A stretch of DNA of 64,000 bases from Moniliella sp. 'wahieum' (taxonomy: Eukaryota): NCBI GenBank assembly GCA_003971905.1, contig RSEE01000023.1:558001-622000 (forward strand). Reading direction: 5' to 3'. Positions 11,114 to 56,687 of the stretch are shown here, piece by piece. Each line of letters begins with the position of its first letter. Position 1 is the stretch's first letter. Position numbers and translations under genes: made by a program. The notes beneath the pieces were generated by a model. It saw nothing but the letters and a program-made list of their open reading frames with translations. It was not told where the DNA came from and did no database searches.

Positions 11114-12773
11114 ATGTCCCAGTACGACACCCACTCCATCTCCCGCTCGACCACCGTGTCCCGCAAGAGCACCATCACCTCCCGCAACGCCTCGCTCATC
11201 AAGAAGAACACCGGGCCCAACGAACTAAAGCCGTCGGACCTTCTAATTGAGCGCTTCAATGGTGTGTACACTTACCTCCTCCGTTGCGGCGCCCATTTCT
11301 TCTCACACTGTATATACGCTCGTCAGGATGGAAGAGCATCACGAAGCAGCTCATCTCCTATTTTGAAGGGATCGCCGACATTGAGTCCAACACTGCGCGC
11401 GAGCTCACCAAGCTCGGTGGCGTCATCCAAGTCCCATTCCGTGAAGGGAACCAGTTTCTGGGCGAGGATGGCATCCAAGACGTCTACTATGCGATTCGTG
11501 ACAAGACACGCGTCATTGCTGATCATCATGCCAATCTCGCAAAGACCGTGGAAGGTTCCATTGTCCAACACCTCCAAAAGCTCCGCACAGAGATCAAAGC
11601 CCATGTTCGCAATGTACAGCAAGACACGGGCAAGCTTGCAAATAGCGTGGCGAAAGAACGTGAGCTGTCTACAAAGCTCATTACCGACTTGGCCAAGGCC
11701 ATCACACTCCTCAAGAATGCACCATGAGTGTCACAGCTCGTGAGGATCCCTGGGCTCAGAATGCAACTGTTTTCCGTCAACTGCAGCGCCAGGTCAACGA
11801 GGAGAACGCTCTGCAAAAGTCAATCATCATCATGCAGCAGAACTCGGCCCACTTTGAAGAGGGAATTGTCCGCTCCATCCAGTCGGCCTGGCAGACTTTT
11901 GACGAATGGTCTGGTCGCATGTCGGCTCAAGTGCAAGATACTTGGCTCTCGCTGGGCGTGCAAATGCGAGGACTACAGCCCAACGCCGAATGGATCGCCT
12001 TTGCTGCTCGTTCAGACCACCTGCTCGACCCGGACACACCTCTGCGCAACCCGGAGACGATCGATTACCCGGGTAAGGATGACCCCTCGGTCATTCCTGT
12101 CCATCATGGCATTCTCGAGCGCAAGAAGCGCTTCACCAACAACTATAAGGAATCCTTCTACGTCCTCACTCCGGCTGGCTACCTGCACGAACTCCCTTCA
12201 TCTGACCCACAGCGCCACCCACAGCCGGTCCTTTCTCTCTTCTTGCCCGAATGCACGCTCGGTGCCCCCTCGACCAATGCAGCCAAGAGCCACAAATTCC
12301 ACATTACCGCGGCCAAGTCGGACAATCCCCTAGCGAGCTTGCGTGGTGAGCAGGCCTACACGTTCCGTGCGCGCAGCCACAACGAGATGATGGAATGGTG
12401 GAACGACATCAAGCAGCTCTCTAAGGTTTACCTCACTACGTCGGAGCAGATGGACCGCTCAGGCCCTGTGCCAGCGGCTGTGCGAGCTATCGGCTATCAC
12501 TCTGAGGTGAGAGTGAAGAGAGGATGAGGAGGAAGGATCGTCGATTGAGGAGGCAATCGATGAGGAAGGAGAAGAGGGTAACATTCCTGAAGAAGGTGGA
12601 AGTGGAAGAGGAGTACATCTTAGCACCTTCGGTGAGGAGGTGCCAGGGTACACTGGGGCTCCTGGTAATCCAGTATCCCGGTTGGGCACGAAGGCTATGT
12701 GTTCGAGAAGAAGGCGGAAGAAGCGGAGATTCCCCCTACCGCCCATGACGAAAGCGGCACCGCGCAAGCCTAG
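11114..12773 (+). CDS. SLM1: Slm1/2-like BAR-PH domain PI(4,5)P2-binding protein
   Basis: PSDLLIERF.GWKSITKQLISYFEGIADIE (BAR). PH domain GILERKKRFTNNYKESFYVLTPAGYLHE...LSLFLPECTLG...YTFRARSHNEMMEWWNDIK. Acidic tail. One intron (~11262-11327). Confidence 0.85.
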
Positions 12774-13485: not shown

Positions 13486-15148
<1,663 letters not shown>

Positions 15149-22899: not shown

Positions 22900-25007
22900 T
22901 TAGTAGAGCGGCCAAACATGGTCCAGGCCAACGCCTTCTTGCCGCACTGGGGCAGACCTTGCCCTCGATCGAGGGGTAAGCAGTCTGGTCGTTGGGGATG
23001 CACAGCGACTTGGCGCCCATCGAAGGTGCACGCTCATCCACCTCCTCTTCGTTCTCGACTGTCCGCGCGGAGCGGTCCTTGATGGCGTCCTCACATGCCT
23101 CCTCCTTGCACCACGGGATGATCACATGGTTCTTGGCGTTCAACAGCGTCGTAAATTCGTCCCACTGGGTGCAGACCTTGCGGTGCGCCGCATACTCTGC
23201 CTCTGCCTTCTTGTACATGTCCGACTGGATCGTCTCCAGCAGTTCCGACACGCTCTTCTCCACCCCCTCAAGCGGTAGGGCAGCCTTCTTAAACGTGTCA
23301 CGGCGCGCCGACAGCACCGACTTCTTCTTGAGGTCGAGCGGGCCAAGCTCCAAGCGGACCGGCACGCCACGCAGTTCCCAGTCATTGAACTTCCATGCTG
23401 GGCTGTAGTTGTCGCGGTCGTCGAATTTGGCCCGGATGCCAGCCGCAACGAGCTGCTTCCAGAGCTGCTCGCATGCATCGTGGATTTGCTTACGCTCCAC
23501 ATCACCGGTCTTGACGGTAATCCCAACAGGAATGATCACCACCTGCAGCTTGGCCACGCGCGGGGGCATGACCAGACCCTTGTCATCACCGTGCACCATC
23601 ACCATCACACCCAACGTACGGGTCGAGAGACCCCACGAGTTCTGCCACACATGGATCTTACCCTCCGGGGTGCCGCGCACCGACGCATCCGCTGCCGGGT
23701 CTTCCACTGTGATGTCAAACATCTTGCTAAAGTTTTGGCCAAGGCGTGCGAAGTACCACCCTGGATGCCACGGCCCACAGCCGGATAAAGCCCTCGACAG
23801 TCGTAGTAAACAGACCACCGGCAAATTTCTCCTTCTCCGACTTGACACCCGGCACGACAGGCAGGGCGAGGAGATCGGTATACACCTTGCGGTACAAGTC
23901 AAGGATGGTGTACACTTCCTCCTCTGCCTCCTTGCGGGTGAGGAAAGCAGTGTGGCCTTCCTGCCACAGGAACTCACGAGTACGGAGGAACGGCTGGGGG
24001 TGCTTGAACTCCCAGCGCACGACCGAGTTCCACTGGTTCAGCTTCAGTGGCAGGTCGCGGTGCGAGGTGATCCATTTGGCATAGTAGGGGTACATGACCG
24101 TCTCACTGTCGGCGCCGAATGGCGACCGGGCGTTCCAGCTCAGACTGGCCAGCACGCGTCACCAGGCTACTCGGGGGCAAAGCCCTCAATGTGGTCCTTC
24201 TCACGTTCCAGCACATCCTGCGAAACAAACGGGAAGTAGCAGTCTTCCACTCCAGCTTCTTGATCTCGGCGTCAAAGAAGCCTTGGATGCACTCCCACAC
24301 AAAGTACGACCACGGCTTGATCACATAGCACCCGACACGTTGTAAAGTCAATCATGTCCCTTGCGAAGAACCTGCTGGTACCAGTCCGAGAAGTCGCCCT
24401 CTTTCCGCACAGTAATTCCAATCAGCGAAGCATCCTCAATCTTAGCGTCGTTCTTTTTCGGTGCGGCGGCCTTCTTGGCTGCCGCTGGCGCCGCCGAGCC
24501 TCGGTCTGGAGTGCCGCAAAGTCAATCACCTCCGTCTTGACGCCCGTGGGCGAGGTATTTGGCAATGTCCTGCCCGACAAGAGCAGTGTCTTGTCGCTCG
24601 AACCGGCGTGCACAGCTTGCTTATCAGACGCAGCGCGGGGCGCCATCAAGCGCGACAGTTACCTGTTCTGCGTTGGCCTTGGTGATGGACAGCGGCGACA
24701 CATCCGGGTGCGCTAAGCGTAGAGGCAAGCACGTCCGCCGACGCGAGGCGCAGATCCTTCAGACCAAGTTTTTTCCCCAGCGGCGCGGAGCTTGTCTGGT
24801 TGTCTCGGACGCAATCACGACGAGCAGAGAGGCCTTGCCTTGGGCTTGAAGACGAGAGTCTTGATGTAGGCGGCCGGGCCGGAGTGGGCGGCGGCCACCG
24901 CCGTCTTGTACTCGGCGGGGCTGGCGGCAGGGGGTGCGCGATAGGCGCGTCGTGGCTGCGATGGAGAGGGTGGCGAGCTGGGCCTGGATGTCGGCAAGCG
25001 TCGGCAT
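22900..25007 (-). CDS. Cytosolic prolyl-tRNA synthetase with N-terminal YbaK-like domain
   Basis: [10 protein letters not shown] (YbaK-like); [107 protein letters not shown] end. Many indels. Confidence 0.95.
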
Positions 25008-27300: not shown

Positions 27301-27734
27301 TCCTCGGGGGCGTCTGTCTGTGAAATGACATGTGACGCGGCGGTCATCAATTCTATCACCGATCAACTCACACCCATTTTAACTTTCAACTACGCACTGA
27401 GTACAAAGATAGGCGGCCCCAGATATAGTGCTAGTGGGCTGCAGGCGGCCCCTGTGCCCGCCTGGCGTGGCCAACTGACGTTTTAATGACAGCCAGGACT
27501 CCGGCAGCTGCATCAGCGGCTCAGGGTGCATCATGCATCATGCCTCTGCCCCCGGCCTGATGCATGATGACTGATGACTAGATGACTGATCTTCAGCCTT
27601 GTTCCGCATCAACCATCCACGTTCAGCGCAAGCTCCTCAGCCCCACCCTCCGGCCTCAGGCTGAGGCTTGTCCATCATCGCCATCCCCTGCCCTCACCAT
27701 CACCCCCGCTGGCTCGCACGCGGACGCCTGCGCC

Positions 27735-29164
27735 ATGTCCGGTTCTTCCAGCGTCGTTGGCGTCCACTACAAGGTCGGCCGCAAGATTGGCGAGGGCTCC
27801 TTTGGAGTTATCTTCGAGGGCACCAATCTACTCAACAACCAGACCGTGGCTATCAAATTTGAGCCGCGCAAGAGCGATGCACCCCAGCTGCGCGACGAGT
27901 ACCGCTCTTACAAAATTCTCAGTGCATGTTTCGGCATCCCCCAGGTCTACTACTTTGGCCAAGAGGGGCTGCACAACGTTCTCATCATTGATCTTCTCGG
28001 GCCCTCACTCGAGGACCTGTTTGACCTGTGTGGCCGCAGGTTTTCCATCAAGACTGTGTGCATGACCGCCAAGCAGATGATCACGCGCCTCCAGAGCGTC
28101 CACGAGAAGAACCTCATCTACCGCGACATCAAGCCCGACAATTTTCTCATTGGACGGCCCCACACCAAGGGAGCCAACGTGATCCACGTCGTCGATTTTG
28201 GTATGGCCTGTATCGCGACCCCAAGACCAAGCAACACATTCCTTATCGTGAGCGCAAATCGTTGTCTGGCACGGCACGATACATGTCCATCAACACTCAC
28301 CTCGGGCGCGAGCAGTCGCGCAGAGATGATCTCGAATCGCTCGGACACGTGTTTATGTACTTTCTCCGTGGCTCGCTCCCCTGGCAGGGGCTCAAGGCCG
28401 CCACCAACAAGCAAAAGTATGAAAAGATTGGGGAGTGCAAACAGTCCACCCCGGTGGCCACGCTATGCGAGGGCTTTCCTGAGGGATTCGCAATTTACCT
28501 CAACTATGTGCGTAAACTTGGCTTTGAAGAGGAGCCTGACTACGACTTTCTTCGTGACTTGATGGACAATGTACTCAAGTCTCGGGGTGAAGAGGAGGAC
28601 GAGAAGTATGATTGGAACCTACTCCATGACGGCCAAGGGTGGGAAGCATCTCTCCAAATGCAGCACCGCGAACGTGAGCGCGAACGCGAGCGCCGGGCCG
28701 AAGAGCGGGAGCGCCGCCGTCGACAGCAACACCAACAAGTCACTCCGTCAAATGCGGCGCATGTTGGGCCACCCACAGCCGCCCAAGGCGCACCAGCGAT
28801 TGGGCGAGGTGGGTCGCAACACCACCCTGCCTTGGCTGGGGGTGTGGCGACCCCCGTCTCGGGTGAAACAGGGCGCTCTCGCCCGCCGGGTTTGGGCTTG
28901 GACTCGGGGCCGGTGGAACCGTCCGGGTCAAAAATGGCGGTTCAGGGGGCCGGTACGCAAGCAGGGACTCCGTTTGGTACAGTCGGTGCCCATGCAGGCG
29001 AAACATCGGCAGTGGCTGCCCCCGCGGCTCCGGGGGGTGAGCTGCGGCATCGCCCAAAGAAAGTCCCTTCGCCTGCCAAGCCTGTTAACCTCCCCACTCA
29101 CGCCTCCAGCAACAGGAGACAAAGCAACACCTTCCTTCATATCTTGACGTGTGGCTGTGTTTAA
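27735..29164 (+). CDS. YCK2: Casein kinase I (Yck1/2 / cki1-type, palmitoylated C-terminus)
   Basis: [68 protein letters not shown]; ends LTCGCV*. One indel at ~28208. Confidence 0.95.
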
Positions 29165-29774
29165 AGGAGCACCCATTTCATCCATGTTCGTTCATGTCCT
29201 GCATCCGATTCAACCCTCAGCATACCACGCCTCGTTTCCCCGGGCTACATCTTCCTCCACACGCCCCTCATTTGCGAACCACTTTTCTTGGCTGTGCTCA
29301 CAATTTGTGCCCCTCTTTGCTGCCGGCTTTTTGTTCCGTTCTGATACTTGCACACCTGCTCTTACTGCAACCGTGATCATCACGGGCGTCGCCCGCATGA
29401 GTTTTGCGATGATAGGAATGCGTAGAGGGTTTTGGCGGTATAGTAACGATGGAGAGCATTGCAATTGGGATGGATGTGGACAAGTGGCGTACTGCCACCA
29501 GATGCTTGCTAAGCCAAAGTGGGGCGAGATGCAGGCGCTGCCTAACCCTGTAGGATACGAGGGGACGGGGGCTCTGAGAGGCGGGTGTTTCCTGCTTTTC
29601 CCGGGGCGGCGGCGAGCAATGATTAATGATTAATGGACGCAGTGGGATGCGATCGCACGTGCATAATTGATGGGCGGGTGACTGAGCGTGGGTTGGGATT
29701 TGCTGTGCGTCTCCAAATGGGGCTTCGCCTGCGCGGCGCTGCGCTCTGCTCCGCCGCTCGTCGCAACGCTGCGG

Positions 29775-32700
29775 ATGGCCAGCCCCGCGTCTCTGCCCGG
29801 CGTGCTGCCGCCTCCGCCCCCCCGTGGGCGCTGGCCGGCTCTGGCCTGGGCCCAGGCCCCGCCGCCGCGCCTGTCCCTCGCGCGCCTCGTGCACCAGCTC
29901 AGCTGCCTCGTCCACTGGGAGGAGCAGCGTGCGGCTGCGCTCGCCCACGCCGACACCCCCGCCGCCCCCGCGCCCGCCTCGGCCGCCCGCCGCCGCCCGC
30001 GTGCCCGCCACGCCTCCCGCCCTGCCTCCTCCACCACCACGCCCACCCATCCCACGCCCCCCCACAATGCTCCGCCGCTCCCTTCCCGGCGCCCACCGCA
30101 CGCCACACCCAGCCGAAGGACCCGCTTGACCCGCCGCCCCTTGCTGCCGACGCCCATCTCCTGGCCCAGGCGGACGACCTGATGAAGCGTCTTTGGGACC
30201 AGCGCTGGACCTCCGCCCAGCACACTGCCCTTCTCACCGCCAGCACCCCTGGCGTGCCTGACCCTTCTCCCTCCACCCGACTCCCAGGAGTGGTCGCGCC
30301 ACCCCCATCAGCCCCTTTGCCCTTTCCCCCTCGGCCACCGACGATCCCTCTGCCTCCCCGCTGTGGGAAAGCGTCGAACGGCACGCCCCACCTCTCTCGC
30401 CGGTTTCTCCCGACAGCGTGCCTCGTCTCTCTCCCACTCATTAGACGCATATATGCATGCAGAAGAGGATGCCGAGCCCCGCAGCCATCTCCCGGCGGTC
30501 ACGTTGATCTGGGGGAGGGCGAGCTCTGCTCCAAGGCCATCGCTATCCCGACACCGCACCCGCCCCTGATGCCGATTCCATCCCAAATGTTGGGTGGCGA
30601 ATCGCCCACGACAGTGATGCGTGACTTGGAGTTGGCATACGTCCCTACCGATGGAGAGGATGAGGAACATTCGCCTCTTCCCAAGCTGTCGGCGGAGGAG
30701 GAGCTACGTCTGCTAAAGGCTCAGGTGCAGGACATTGCTCGGGTTTGCAAGGTGAATTCATCCTCCCCTGTTTCGATGCGAGGCCTATGACTGAACCCCC
30801 CTTGTCGTTTGCAGGCAGTGGCGTTTGGCGACTTATCCCAGTACGTGACGGTGCCGACGCGTGGACTAGTGATGCAAGACCTCAAGGAGATTATCAACCA
30901 GATGGTCAAGACCCTCTCTGAGTTTACGGCAGACGTGACTCGGGTGAGCCTCGAAGTGGGCACACAAGGTGCTCGGCGGGCAAGTCAAAGCCGAAGGTGT
31001 CGAGGGCCGCTGGAAAGAGCTTAAGGACGTCGTCAACAATCTGGCCATGAACTTGACAAACCAAGTACGTGGCGTGGGCATGTGCACCAAGGCGGTCGCT
31101 CGCGGCGACCTGAGTCGCAAAATCGAGGTTCAAGCCGAGGGTGAGATGCGCGATTTGATCGATACGATGAACACGATGGTGGACCAGCTACGGGACTTTG
31201 CCAACGAAGTGACCCGCGTCTCAAGGGAGGTGGGGTCGATGGGCCAGCTGGGAGGCCAAGCTAGCGTCCCAGGCGTCGAAGGCGTGTGGGAGGAATTGAC
31301 CATCAACGTGAACCGCATGTGCTCCAACCTGACGGAACAAGTCCGGTCCATCTCCATGGTCACTACCGCTGTAGCCAAAGGCAACTTAACCAAGACGATT
31401 GACATTGAGGCTGAAGGAGAGATGGCACAGTTGAAGGATACGGTAAACTCCATGGTCGCCCGCTTGCGGGTATTTGCGTCTGAGGTGGTGCGCATGTCGA
31501 TGGAGGTGGGTACGTACGGCAAGCTCGGCGGGCAAGCTCATGTACCCAACGTCGAGGGCACATGGAAGGACTTGACCGACAATGTAAATCGGATGGCAGA
31601 CAATTTGACCTCCCAAGTACGCGAAATTGCTCGGGTGACCAAGAATGTCGAAGAGGGCGTCTTAACTGAGTTTATCAATGTGGACGCCAAGGGCGAGATC
31701 CTGGATCTCAAGATCACTGTCAACAATATGGTCAAGCAACTCAAAACCTTGTCCGATGAGATCATCCGTGTCTCCGTCGAAGTGGGAACTGAGGGACGAC
31801 TCGGTGGGCAAGCCAATGTTCGAGGCGTCAAGGGCCAGTGGCAGGTACTCACTGACCGGGTCAACATGATGGCTGCCAACCTAACGACCCAAGTACGCTC
31901 AATTGCTGCCGTCACCACGGCTGTCGCTCGTGGTGACCTGGGGCAAACTATCAATGTTGATGCGCGGTGAGCTGCTCGACCTCAAGTTGACCGTCAATGA
32001 GATGGTCAAGTTCCTCCGCACCTTCTCCACTGAGGTGACTCGAGTCGCCCGAGAGGTGGGTACTGAGGGCAAGCTCGGGGGTAAGGCTGTCGTACTCGGC
32101 ATTGAGGGGACGTGGAAAGACCTGACAGAGTCGGTGAATACGATGGCGGGCAACCTCACTCTGCAAGTGCGCACAATTGCGCATGCCACGACGGCGGTGG
32201 CCAACGGCGATCTCAGTCAGAAGGTTACTATTGCTGTTGCGGGTGAAATGCTGGATTTGGTCAACACGATCAACAACATGATTGACCAGCTCTCCTTCTT
32301 TGCCTCAGAGGTCACCCGCGTCGCCCGCGAGGTTGGCACTGAGGGAAAGCTGGGTGTGCAGGCTGAAGCCAAAGACGTCAAGGGCAAATGGGCGGAGATT
32401 ACAGACAATGTCAACATTATGGCCAACAACCTCACTTCGCAGGTGCGCGCCTTTGCTCAGATTACTGCGGCCGCTACCGATGGAGACTTTACTCGTTTTG
32501 TCACCGTCGAGGCGAATGGCGAGATGGACTCGCTAAAGACCAAAATTAATCAGATGGTCTTTAGTTTGCGACTCTATCCAGAAGAACACGGCGGCCAGGG
32601 AGGCGGCCGAACTGGCAAACCGATCCAAATCCGAGTTCTTGGCCAACATGTCGCACGAAATCCGGACCCCGATGAACGGCATCATCGGTCTCACCACCCT

Positions 32701-34200
32701 TACTCTTGAGTCAGAGCTCAGTCGTGGCCAGAGGGAGAACTTGGTTACCGTTTCGACATTGGGGGCGGTCTGCTCGCTATCATTGACGACATTCTTGACA
32801 TTTCCAAGATCGAGGCTGGGCGGATGACGGTGGAGGAGGTCCCGTTCAGTTTGCGGACTATCGTGCTGGGTGTGTTAAAGACTCTCTCTGTCCGAGCCAC
32901 ACAGAAGAAGTTGCGTTTACTTTACGAAGTAACGCGTGACTGCCCCGAACCGCTCGTGGGCGATGCGCTTCGCCTCAAACAGATTATCACCAACTTGATT
33001 GGCAATGCGGTCAAGTTCACCGAATCAGGGGGGCGCGTCTCTCTCACGTGCAAGGTTGCTCGGCAGATTTCGGAAAATGAGGTGATGTTGGAGTTTTGCG
33101 CATCCGACTCGGGGATCGGGATCAAGCCAGAGAAGCTGGATCTCATCTTTGACACGTTTAGTCAAGCGGACGGGTCGACAACGCGTAAGTATGGTGGCAC
33201 AGGCCTAGGACTCAGCATTTCTCGCCGCTTGGTTAAGCTCATGGGTGGGGATCTGTGGGTGCAGAGCGACTACGGTAAGGGGTCCGAGTTTTTCTTCACA
33301 ATGGTGGTGCGAATCGACAAGTTGTCGCAAGAGCAGGTACTGGACAAGATCCGTCCCTACATGGGCCGCAACATCTTCTTCCTCGACACGCTCCATGATA
33401 AGACGGGGATTGTGGACATGCTACGACAGCTCAAGCTGAACCCGATCCATTGTCACTCGGTCGAGGAAGCGCTTGTGCTTACCCGTCAACATCGTCTTCC
33501 TCGTATTGATTCAATCATCGTCGACTCGATTGAAGCGGTGGGCGATTTGCTTGGTCGAAACACTGCATTATATCCCCATCAACTTGATCACGCCCTATGA
33601 AATCACACTCAGCCTCACGTTCTGTCTCGATCATGGGATTTCAAGCTACATCACTACCCCGCCTCATTGGTGGACATTATGTACACCCTCCTCCCCTCAC
33701 TGGAGAGTGCTGCGGCTGTTCTGTCGGAGGGAACAACCGAAGTAACTTATGACATTCTCCTGGCCGAAGACAATCAAGTGAACCAGAAGCTGGCGGTCAA
33801 GATGCTCAGCAATCAGGGCCACCGCATCGACGTGGTGCCCAATGGGGCAGAGGCGGTGGATGCGATTAAGCGAAAGGCGTACGATGTGATTCATGGACGT
33901 GTCGATGCCCATCATGGGGGGGATTGAAGCAACAATGGCGATTCGCGCTTGGGAGAAGAGCGAGGGGATCGAAGAGACGGCGGTGCCAATCATTGCTTTG
34001 ACCGCACATGCCATGTTGGGGGACAAGGGCGCTGCCTCCAAGCTGGGATGAATGCCTATGTTTCCAAGCCCATCCGTCGTACCGAGCTGCTCAGTGCGCT
34101 TCACAATCTTCTTCCTCCGGCCAAAGTATTTGCCCGCCATGCAAACCATGCGGCGCTGAGCCCTGGGGACAAGTTGGCGCTCACTGCAAAGGGTCGGTGA
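29775..34200 (+). CDS. NIK1: Group III hybrid histidine kinase (poly-HAMP, HisKA, HATPase, receiver)
   Basis: Six ~92-aa HAMP repeats (..[16 protein letters not shown]..) plus a terminal HAMP; H box [21 protein letters not shown] boxes [27 protein letters not shown]; receiver [25 protein letters not shown]. Intron ~30752-30814. Start codon uncertain (Pro-rich N-terminus). Confidence 0.93.
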
Positions 34201-54658: not shown

Positions 54659-54979
54659 CACTGTCGTTGGGTTCGATTCTGTCAACGGTGGTTTCTTCAA
54701 ATAGTGGACTGTGTTGGGCAATAATTAAAGAGCATAGACCAGAACGTAGGGCAGTGCTATTCCCGTCTTCCGCCCCCCGCTGGCTTCAAGCTACCTGTCC
54801 GATCTCTCCTGTCTGCTCTGCCTAGGGCATCTTCCAGTCTTTTTCCCAGTCGAGCTCGTGCAACCTACATGCACCAGTTGCAAGTAAGGCCAAAAGGAAA
54901 TGCATCGCGCCCAGTGCGAGAGGTGGTGGCACAGAACATGGTGAGTTTCCCTTGCCTTGGGGGAGGACCTAGGTCGCAT

Positions 54980-55435
54980 TTACTTGAGCACCTTCTTCTT
55001 GCGCAGCTGCGACGAGTGGCCGCACTTGCGCTTGCGGCAGTTGGTTGCACGCGGCGGCAGACGAGCGTAGCACTTGCGGCAAATTTGCTTCTCGACATTC
55101 GTCTTGGACGCAAGCACCTTGAGCGAGGGCTCAATGATACCTCCCAGCAGGCTGAGGAGACATTCGCACGTTAGTTCCCAGTGGCCAGACACGCGACACG
55201 CGACAAAAGATGGACAACGTACCTCAACGACATGTGCAGCGTAGCGTCCTTCTGGATGCCATAGTCGGCAAGGGTGCGGCCGTCGGCCAGCTGCTTGCCC
55301 GCGTAGAGCAGGCGCTGCTCCGAGGCGGGGATGCCCTCACGGGCAAAGTTGAGGGCCTTGACCGACTCGACCGTGGCCTGGGGCCACAGCGTGGGCCAGG
55401 GTGTTGCCCCGGACAGAGTTGACAAAGATTTGCAT
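54980..55435 (-). CDS. RPL40: Ubiquitin-like domain fused to ribosomal protein eL40
   Basis: eL40: [53 protein letters not shown]-terminal 76-aa [15 protein letters not shown]...[43 protein letters not shown]. Coding intron 55222-55152, 5' UTR intron 55556-~55441, one C-run indel at ~55381. Confidence 0.93.
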
Positions 55436-56687
55436 CCCTACTGCGAATGGTGGAGGGGTCAGTGGAAGCCGGAAGGGGGGGCGGTGGATGAACACAACAA
55501 GCGGAGGGAGGGGGAAGGCGCTGGGGGTGGCGCCGTACGCGAACACGGGCACTTACCTTGACTTGCTTGGTGGTGGACAGGCGGCAGTACCACGTCCGGG
55601 CGTCGGAGGGAGGCGAGGCGGGCAGGGGTGCCCACTAGTGCCCTGAGAATTTGCGAAACTGGCCAGGTGCTGAAGGGGTAGAGCTGTGAGTGGCCTGGTG
55701 CGGGCGTGAGTTTATTGCGCCGGGCCAGCCCTAGCCTGCGCTAGCACTGCGCGCGGCGGCGGTAGGGTCTGGCTGGCTGGGCGGAGCGGCGCAGTTGAAA
55801 GTTGCAGGGGATGGACGGCTGGTTTTGAAATGTGGAGGCGGGGCGCGGGGTCGGACGATGGCATGGATGACCTGCATGACACGGCCTGAGCGCTGGGCGG
55901 CAGAGCAGTGTGCGATTGAAAGCAAAGCTGAGCACTCGAATGCTTAACCCCGCTGGGGCAGCCGGAGAGACCAGGGTGACGAGGGTGACTAGGGTGACTA
56001 CGGGGCAGCACTGGGCAGCAGCCAGCACTCCCCCGAGAGTGGATACCGAGGACAGAGTGAGTTACCACTGTCATCGATCATCGATCACTTGTCCTCTTCC
56101 TCAGGCCGCGCTGGCCACACCACCGCCTCCTGGATGGGCTGCGGGAGGCCATGGCTGTACGCAGCGCCATTGGTGTGGTGGCCTCGGCGAGGCGGAAGCT
56201 GCCCGGCGCGACGAGCAGAGGAGGACAAGGCAAATGAAGCCAAGCAACAAGGGCCGCCAGGGGCCTATATTGTTGCAGATGCACATGGCAGCGCCCACAG
56301 AGGCGTACGCAGACAATGCCCGCGACGAGGCTCATCCATCTCATCATCCGTGGGGGAAGGTGGGCTGATATGCTGCCTGTGGCGCTGGCTGCTGCTCCAG
56401 CGTCTACCCGACTACGGACGGCTATCGACTGTCGGCTACCCCGGATGTGAAAGGGCGGGGCGGCACGGGGCTGGTGTGGGGTTAGGTGGCCGGCATCTGA
56501 ATCCGGCGGCGGTGGGGCGCACGGCCACACTCGCGGCGGGGTGTGCGGGGCAGGTTATTAGGCTCTATTGGCGATTGGTCAGCTCTTATAAAGCAGCACT
56601 GCTGCTTGCGCCCCGCAGCACCCGCCTCCTCTCCTCTCACACCCCCTGCCCCACCCTTGCCACCCCCCGCCTCCACCCCCCATCGCC

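Follow-up and report, generated by a model that had tools for sequence, protein, structure and literature searches.

Few known proteins are as strongly conserved as ubiquitin. In the 64-kb stretch of DNA analysed here (the window), a gene on the minus strand joins a leader that departs widely from ubiquitin to the ribosomal protein eL40, and the question it raises is what such a leader is: a domain still in use in its own lineage, the drifting leader of a second copy, part of a dead duplicate, or a new protein modifier. A divergent Giardia ubiquitin on eL40 is said to have been described by Catic and Ploegh in 2005, as cited by Dalhuisen et al. Before 2023 Giardia was the only known case of this arrangement (Dalhuisen et al. 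2023, PMC10457151, in the part cited here), and the same source describes two independent cases in Plasmodium, in its lineages Vivax and Ovale, in which 11–23 residues have changed and the predicted structure keeps the fold. Its authors call such cases extremely rare and ask whether they are more widespread (PMC10457151, same part).

A two-exon gene for a ubiquitin-like leader on eL40

The gene consists of two coding exons and one intron within the coding sequence (Table 1). As read from the sequence, the intron (55222..55152) begins with GTACGT, contains the branch site ACTAAC and ends with CAG, and it interrupts codon 72, which reads AG|C (Ser), the C being the first base of exon 2. The original prediction had drawn codon 72 across the intron in the same way, and the exon sequences on either side of 55222..55152 bear it out. 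The translated pieces are a 19-residue N-terminal stretch, a 52-residue stretch in the next frame, and then LLGG followed by the 52-residue eL40. In Pfam the 52-residue piece of exon 1 matched ubiquitin (PF00240, E 8.4e-18, profile positions 19–68 of 72) and the exon 2 piece matched Ribosomal_L40e (PF01020, E 9.9e-29), giving the architecture of Ub-eL40 genes, a single ubiquitin-fold unit that ends in Gly-Gly and passes directly into a 52-residue eL40. The junction GG|IIEPS is identical across 106 sequences with the junction motif, namely 105 database proteins and the exon 2 piece of the window (P0002). A putative further intron in the 5′ UTR, proposed from the sequence alone, would have its 3′ end 5 nt upstream of the ATG. 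Tblastn with canonical Ub-eL40 and with a close relative of the leader protein, P0004, as queries found no second ubiquitin or eL40 locus within the 64-kb window, and an Rfam scan of the window returned no match.

Table 1. Features of the leader–eL40 gene in the window, and diverged eL40 leaders in other fungal proteins
Feature	Position or protein	Strand	Basis or detail
Whole two-exon leader–eL40 gene	55435..54980	−	Sequence reading
Start codon ATG	55435–55433	−	Sequence reading
Coding exon 1: leader residues 1–71 and AG of codon 72	55223..55435	−	Sequence, translations, PF00240
Frame break inside exon 1, codons 19/20	55378..55381	−	Overlap of two reading frames
Intron, 71 nt, after base 2 of codon 72	55152..55222	−	GT..AG ends, X1 contig
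Coding exon 2: base 3 of codon 72, LLGG, 52-residue eL40, stop	54980..55151	−	Translation, PF01020
Stop codon TAA	54982–54980	−	Sequence reading
Putative 5′ UTR intron, GTAAGT...CACTGAC...CAG	55441..55556	−	Sequence letters alone
Diverged leaders, Microsporum canis and Trichophyton	P0083, P0093, P0101		LDLPGG tail
Diverged leaders, Synchytrium	P0063, P0073		
Diverged leader, Pleurostoma richardsiae	P0018		
Diverged leader, Biscogniauxia marginata	P0065		
Diverged leaders, unnamed JGI proteins	P0007, P0050, P0057		

The leader lies far outside the ubiquitin norm

Counted by script against canonical ubiquitin (the ubiquitin part of P0009, from Cryptococcus), the leader has the same residue at 40 of 76 positions and a different one at 36; an earlier hand count against yeast ubiquitin had given about 40/76. 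Four lysines are lost (K6N, K11N, K29L and K33R) and three are kept (K27, K48 and K63). The hydrophobic patch L8/I44/V70 has become V/L/S through L8V, I44L and V70S, and the relatives described below carry I or V, L or M, and S at these positions. The tail reads LSLLGG instead of LRLRGG, with R72S and R74L and with G75 and G76 kept, and among other positions R42, I36, H68, L71 and L73 are also retained. The lysines, the patch and the tail are all as the original prediction had them, the tail being given both by the script comparison and by the translation of exon 2. R72 is a main determinant of ubiquitin E1 recognition. In sequence identity, in the LRLRGG tail, and in the seven lysines and the patch, the leader thus departs from bona fide ubiquitin. 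The eL40 part, in turn, shares 46 of its 52 residues with eL40 from Cryptococcus depauperatus, Parajaminaea and Malassezia globosa and has six unusual residues; the variants KTNVEK and RKKKVLK, which had been pointed out earlier, are both present in it. Judged from its sequence, the leader is a real ubiquitin-fold domain on eL40 that lies far outside the ubiquitin norm.

An AlphaFold2 model of P0004, built from an alignment that included other leaders and canonical ubiquitin, reached a mean pLDDT of 95.6, and this predicted structure superposes on ubiquitin, as expected of a beta-grasp domain and with ubiquitin itself in the alignment. Compared with the PDB, the top 50 matches shown were ubiquitin chains or complexes at a TM of about 0.95, with one at 0.30. 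A model made from the five clade sequences alone was poor (pLDDT 58.1), so the P0004 model would add little beyond the Pfam match.

A frame break in exon 1 and an indel-prone assembly

Exon 1 as assembled is split between two frames. The first frame closes with CCA (55381–55379), the second opens with CAG (55380–55378), these two codons overlap by 2 nt, and the assembly is accordingly either 2 nt short for a 76-codon leader or 1 nt long for a 75-codon leader; the spliced mRNA as assembled meets a stop after 32 codons. The rest of the gene is clean, with this one disruption and no further stop in either piece. Aligned with the window, the relatives P0003–P0005 read through the break in one frame and keep both flanking residues, which fits the 76-codon reading. 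Residue 20 is E or N in these intact relatives; adding two C’s to the C-run would give Q20, and restoring an AG dinucleotide would give E20. The identity of this residue is therefore uncertain and the Q of the original prediction is not secure: of the C-run indel proposed there, the frame break itself stands, and its size and site are ambiguous.

Breaks of the same kind occur elsewhere in the window. Two conserved genes, those for ATP synthase beta (ATP2) and prolyl-tRNA synthetase (ProRS), were tested for frameshifts that no intron explains, and both are broken. In ATP synthase beta (14735–14750, plus strand), a change from frame 1 to frame 2, located by homology to a Jaminaea protein, falls at about 14742–14747 inside the invariant GIYPAVDP, with no intron, and is most likely an assembly indel. 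In ProRS (23764–23781, minus strand), the frameshift leaves no room for an intron: PDB residue 220 falls at 23781 and residue 227 at 23764, 16 nt away in another frame, and a short run apparently lacks one C relative to solved ProRS structures. Since the relatives are intact, ATP2 and ProRS are broken as well and the remainder of the leader–eL40 gene is whole, the frame break in exon 1 is most likely an assembly error and not a defect of the gene.

Pfam domains are also split between open frames around ProRS, a protein kinase and a hybrid histidine kinase, introns and frameshifts being told apart here for ProRS only. The hybrid histidine kinase (HAMP repeats, HisKA, HATPase_c and receiver; 29630–34200, plus strand) takes up five or more open frames, and its HisKA match breaks off at position 47 of the 66 in the profile, at a frame change; this region likely contains more indels or short introns. 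The Pfam match of the protein kinase (27582–28559, plus strand) stops at profile position 153 of 263. A BAR/PH-domain gene lies at 11664–12527 on the plus strand.

Splicing and expression in public contigs

Contigs matching the window came from two public runs, X1, for which no library type is recorded, and X2, an insect gut metagenome, with shares of the stretch of 0.07 and 0.06, respectively. A 196-nt contig from X1 matches 55110–55151 without mismatch and 55223–55376 with two mismatches, skipping exactly the 71-nt intron. It joins 55151 to 55223 at the predicted GT..AG intron and so provides the check on splicing for which the original prediction had called. We read this contig, from a run of unrecorded library type, as spliced mRNA of the gene itself or of a near-identical strain. 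It stops at 55376, 2 nt before the frame break, and 55377–55800 and 54800–54969 are free of contig cover.

A second X1 contig, differing at 13 of 111 nt, follows exon 2 as far as 55150 and continues, by hand translation, into a P0004-type end of exon 1 and a Ser codon, so that LSLLGG seems to be the tail in a second taxon as well. X1 holds two diverged leader–eL40 transcripts, about 99% and about 88% identical to the window (contigs at 55110–55376 and 55040–55150); the sample is therefore mixed, or else one organism carries two divergent copies. The X2 contig covers 54971–55175 with 6 differences and, because it reaches into the intron, represents genomic DNA from a close relative. Both runs also contain fragments with a canonical ubiquitin tail on eL40 at higher depth (loose ends, translated by hand), and in X1 the depth of these canonical Ub-eL40 fragments is 26.5 and 20.8, whereas the diverged form reaches 3.2. 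Their source may be the same genome or other organisms in mixed samples.

Relatives share the leader and appear to maintain it

The closest proteins, P0003–P0005, are proteins of public read assemblies found in a collection of 5.8 billion proteins; they are 85–91% identical over the part searched and are the only three above 60% identity. Within exon 1, the leader is identical to theirs at 61–63 of 71 residues. Across the window and these three relatives 54 of the 71 positions are invariant, 33 of them as in ubiquitin and 21 as common departures from it, and the few variable positions show conservative exchanges (A/S/T, E/D, V/I and L/M). Judged on protein sequences, this pattern suggests that most of the divergence is older than the split of the four taxa and has been maintained since. 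The relatives’ contigs show 10 listed differences in the eL40 exon, all at third codon positions, nine of them synonymous and one changing E to D. The original prediction had asked for orthologues in related taxa and had named a decaying duplicate as an outcome that would speak against it; three intact relatives with a conserved leader were found, and the 21 fixed differences that they share, along with the few conservative changes, argue against decay. To judge by these comparisons, the gene is very probably alive.

Wider searches gave no further relative of this kind. A clade-profile search of a library of 1.84 billion representatives listed 150 matches, every one with at least four ubiquitin-like stretches and at least 326 residues, which we read as polyubiquitin-type multi-domain proteins and not as a census of diverged leaders. 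A scan of metagenome contigs with P0004 kept 80 loci, all 53–60% identical, which is the level at which the window leader stands to ubiquitin, and no close relative was among them. An ESM Atlas look-up of P0004 returned generic ubiquitin-like clusters only.

A probable change within a basidiomycete lineage

The window has a G+C content of 51–63%, fungal-type introns and the HAMP-repeat hybrid histidine kinase. No named protein is more than 86% identical to its ATP synthase beta, which in a single-gene tree falls with Ustilaginomycotina, beside Malassezia, on a long branch and with moderate support (88/89); the eL40 part has a basidiomycete signature. Canonical leaders are found in Malassezia, Sporisorium, Moesziomyces, Pseudozyma and Parajaminaea, and these, together with the placement of ATP2 among Ustilaginomycotina, fit a leader change that would have arisen within the window’s own lineage.

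The intron points to the ancestry of the gene. In 13 of the 120 listed canonical fungal Ub-eL40 proteins, an intron is read through after LVLR and the protein resumes as S-LRGG (protein sequences only), a resumption that fits CG|Y for Arg72; the AG|C of the window is one base away from this. After base 2 of codon 72 is also where canonical basidiomycete Ub-eL40 genes have their intron. Such a shared position could reflect either orthology with the standard gene or a duplicate made at the DNA level, and it fits orthology.

Diverged eL40 leaders in other organisms

The window gene has the architecture, the Gly-Gly|Ile-Ile-Glu junction and the eL40 zinc-ribbon of yeast UBI1 and UBI2, human UBA52 and Cryptococcus UBI1, and it shares its intron position with the canonical basidiomycete genes. 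It differs from canonical Ub-eL40 in having a leader that matches ubiquitin at 40/76 instead of 76/76 positions, with four of seven lysines lost and LSLLGG for LRLRGG. Like the UbL40 (RPL40) of Plasmodium and Giardia, it has one ubiquitin-fold leader on a 52-residue eL40, the eL40 conserved and the leader diverged, the fold predicted to be retained and the change specific to one lineage and independent. Unlike the Plasmodium cases in the cited part of that work, it has a fungal host, has 36 of 76 residues changed instead of 11–23, and carries R72S and R74L in its tail. With FUBI-eS30 (FAU, holozoans) and UBL-1-eS27a (Caenorhabditis) it has in common a lysine-poor ubiquitin-like leader that has to be removed from a ribosomal partner, in the case of FUBI by USP36 (PMC8354635, in the part cited). 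The partners differ, being eL40 here and eS30 or eS31 there, as does the origin. The description ‘FUBI-like’, given in the original prediction, therefore holds as an analogy only: FUBI sits on eS30, and Pfam identifies the partner in the window as eL40.

Other fungi also carry diverged leaders on eL40. From 766 eL40 matches, 120 cluster representatives were listed, 39 of them with a complete leader, and 8 of these 39 are at most 60/76 identical to ubiquitin, a ratio that is no frequency because the cluster list favours odd sequences and canonical proteins collapse into few clusters. The eight come from Microsporum, Trichophyton, two Synchytrium species, Pleurostoma and Biscogniauxia, with two unnamed metagenome proteins. 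Like the window’s, the other fungal leaders are fused through Gly-Gly to a normal eL40, at 41–55/76 identity to ubiquitin, and L74 recurs in two of them; unlike it, four share a 2-residue deletion after residue 6. Compared with the window leader they are identical at 34–43/76 positions, no closer than ubiquitin, and by this comparison they are events separate from that in the window.

Our literature search found no published account of a diverged ubiquitin leader on a fungal eL40, and thus nothing to suggest that the variant had already been described in this lineage, an outcome the original prediction had allowed for; the supplements of PMC10457151 and PMC8122580 may list more. A 2021 review dropped domains less than 80% identical to yeast ubiquitin (PMC8122580, in the part cited), and with this filter it could not detect such leaders. 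Nevertheless, the kind itself, a divergent ubiquitin on eL40, was known before, since the Giardia and Plasmodium cases are published (PMC10457151, as far as cited here) and the fungal cases, among them dermatophyte, Synchytrium and Sordariomycete proteins, stand in public annotations, so that the original prediction overrated its novelty. To this kind the window leader adds a new fungal member, one that has diverged unusually far.

Discussion

We conclude, with a probability of roughly 0.7, that the locus is a working, expressed basidiomycete gene of the Ub-eL40 type, probably from Ustilaginomycotina, whose leader has escaped homogenisation and selection and is now a lineage-specific ubiquitin-like domain. 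In yeast, the ubiquitin of eL40 is a cis-acting chaperone for eL40 expression, for which SUMO is a partial substitute (PMC6721733, in the part cited). By analogy to the ubiquitin of yeast Ubi1, the leader would be translated ahead of eL40 and would aid its folding and expression in cis; a deubiquitinase-type protease able to tolerate S72 and L74 would then cut after Gly76, at LLGG|IIE, freeing eL40 for the 60S subunit. A leader that keeps its cis-chaperone job and is then cut off would be the simplest reading of the retained fold, di-Gly and GG|IIE. With R72, R74 and the L8/I44/V70 patch changed, the freed leader would probably stay outside the ubiquitin pool, and from what is generally known of ubiquitin recognition, its charging by the ubiquitin E1 and its reading by most ubiquitin receptors are unlikely. 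The original prediction had spoken of an independent conversion of the eL40 ubiquitin; an origin within the lineage and the separateness of the other fungal leaders fit this, while the loss of E1 charging and a chaperone-only role are steps that we infer.

The alternatives differ from this reading in different ways. The gene could be a specialised second paralogue, one that supplies eL40, perhaps a variant eL40, under certain conditions and whose leader drifts while a canonical Ub-eL40 gene is kept elsewhere; this differs from a diverged standard gene in copy number alone, and we consider it possible and rather unlikely. Xylariales contain both kinds within one order, canonical in Hypoxylon (P0066) and diverged in Biscogniauxia (P0065), six of the 52 residues of the eL40 part are unusual, and canonical Ub-eL40 fragments accompany the diverged form in both X1 and X2. 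Those fragments may, however, belong to other organisms, X2 being an insect gut metagenome and X1, with its two diverged forms, a mixed sample; no further ubiquitin or eL40 locus lies in the 64-kb window, and the intron sits where the standard basidiomycete gene has it. That the locus is instead a dead duplicate with a real frameshift is suggested by the stop after 32 codons in the assembled frame, over a break that no contig spans. We regard such decay as very improbable: the disruption is single and the pieces otherwise free of stops, the splice signals are intact and used in the 99%-identical contig, the relatives are intact with conservative changes only and with all their eL40 differences at third positions, and the essential ATP2 and ProRS genes of the window have the same kind of break. 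A real frameshift bypassed by programmed ribosomal frameshifting has nothing in its favour besides the break itself and is scarcely credible, given that a single frame encodes these residues in the relatives, that no slippery-site logic was seen and that unrelated genes in the window are similarly broken.

Finally, the freed leader might be a new conjugatable modifier that Uba1 or some other E1 activates and that is joined to proteins as a distinct ubiquitin-like tag. A conjugation role may be conceivable from the residues retained, as the di-Gly, K27, K48, K63, R42, I36, H68, L71 and L73 are kept in the clade (residues 72–76 being read in the window only). The changes of R72, a main determinant of E1 recognition, to Ser and of R74 to Leu speak against it, as does the V/L/S patch, and divergent leaders on ribosomal proteins have been interpreted as chaperone-only in the discussion of PMC10457151, in the part cited. 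We therefore think a modifier improbable, and favour the leader as a domain that serves eL40 in cis within a working gene.

Why ubiquitin is fused to eL40 and eS31 is described as an open question in a review (PMC8122580, in the part cited). A leader that drifts while its eL40 stays fixed separates the two roles such a leader can have, aiding the expression of eL40 and supplying ubiquitin, and natural variants of this kind are ready-made tests of the minimum that a leader needs in fold, di-Gly end and protease site. If this were the sole eL40 gene in its little-sampled, Ustilaginomycotina-like lineage, a source of ubiquitin, one of three that are universal, would have turned into a dedicated, separately processed cis-chaperone, and with at least five further independent fungal cases such escape would be recurrent and not ‘extremely rare’, a proposal to which we give slightly less than even odds. 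The locus is one more example and brings no new principle. Its most useful by-product is the hint of recurrence across fungi, where this locus and the other examples suggest that eL40 leaders of this kind are more widespread than ‘extremely rare’.
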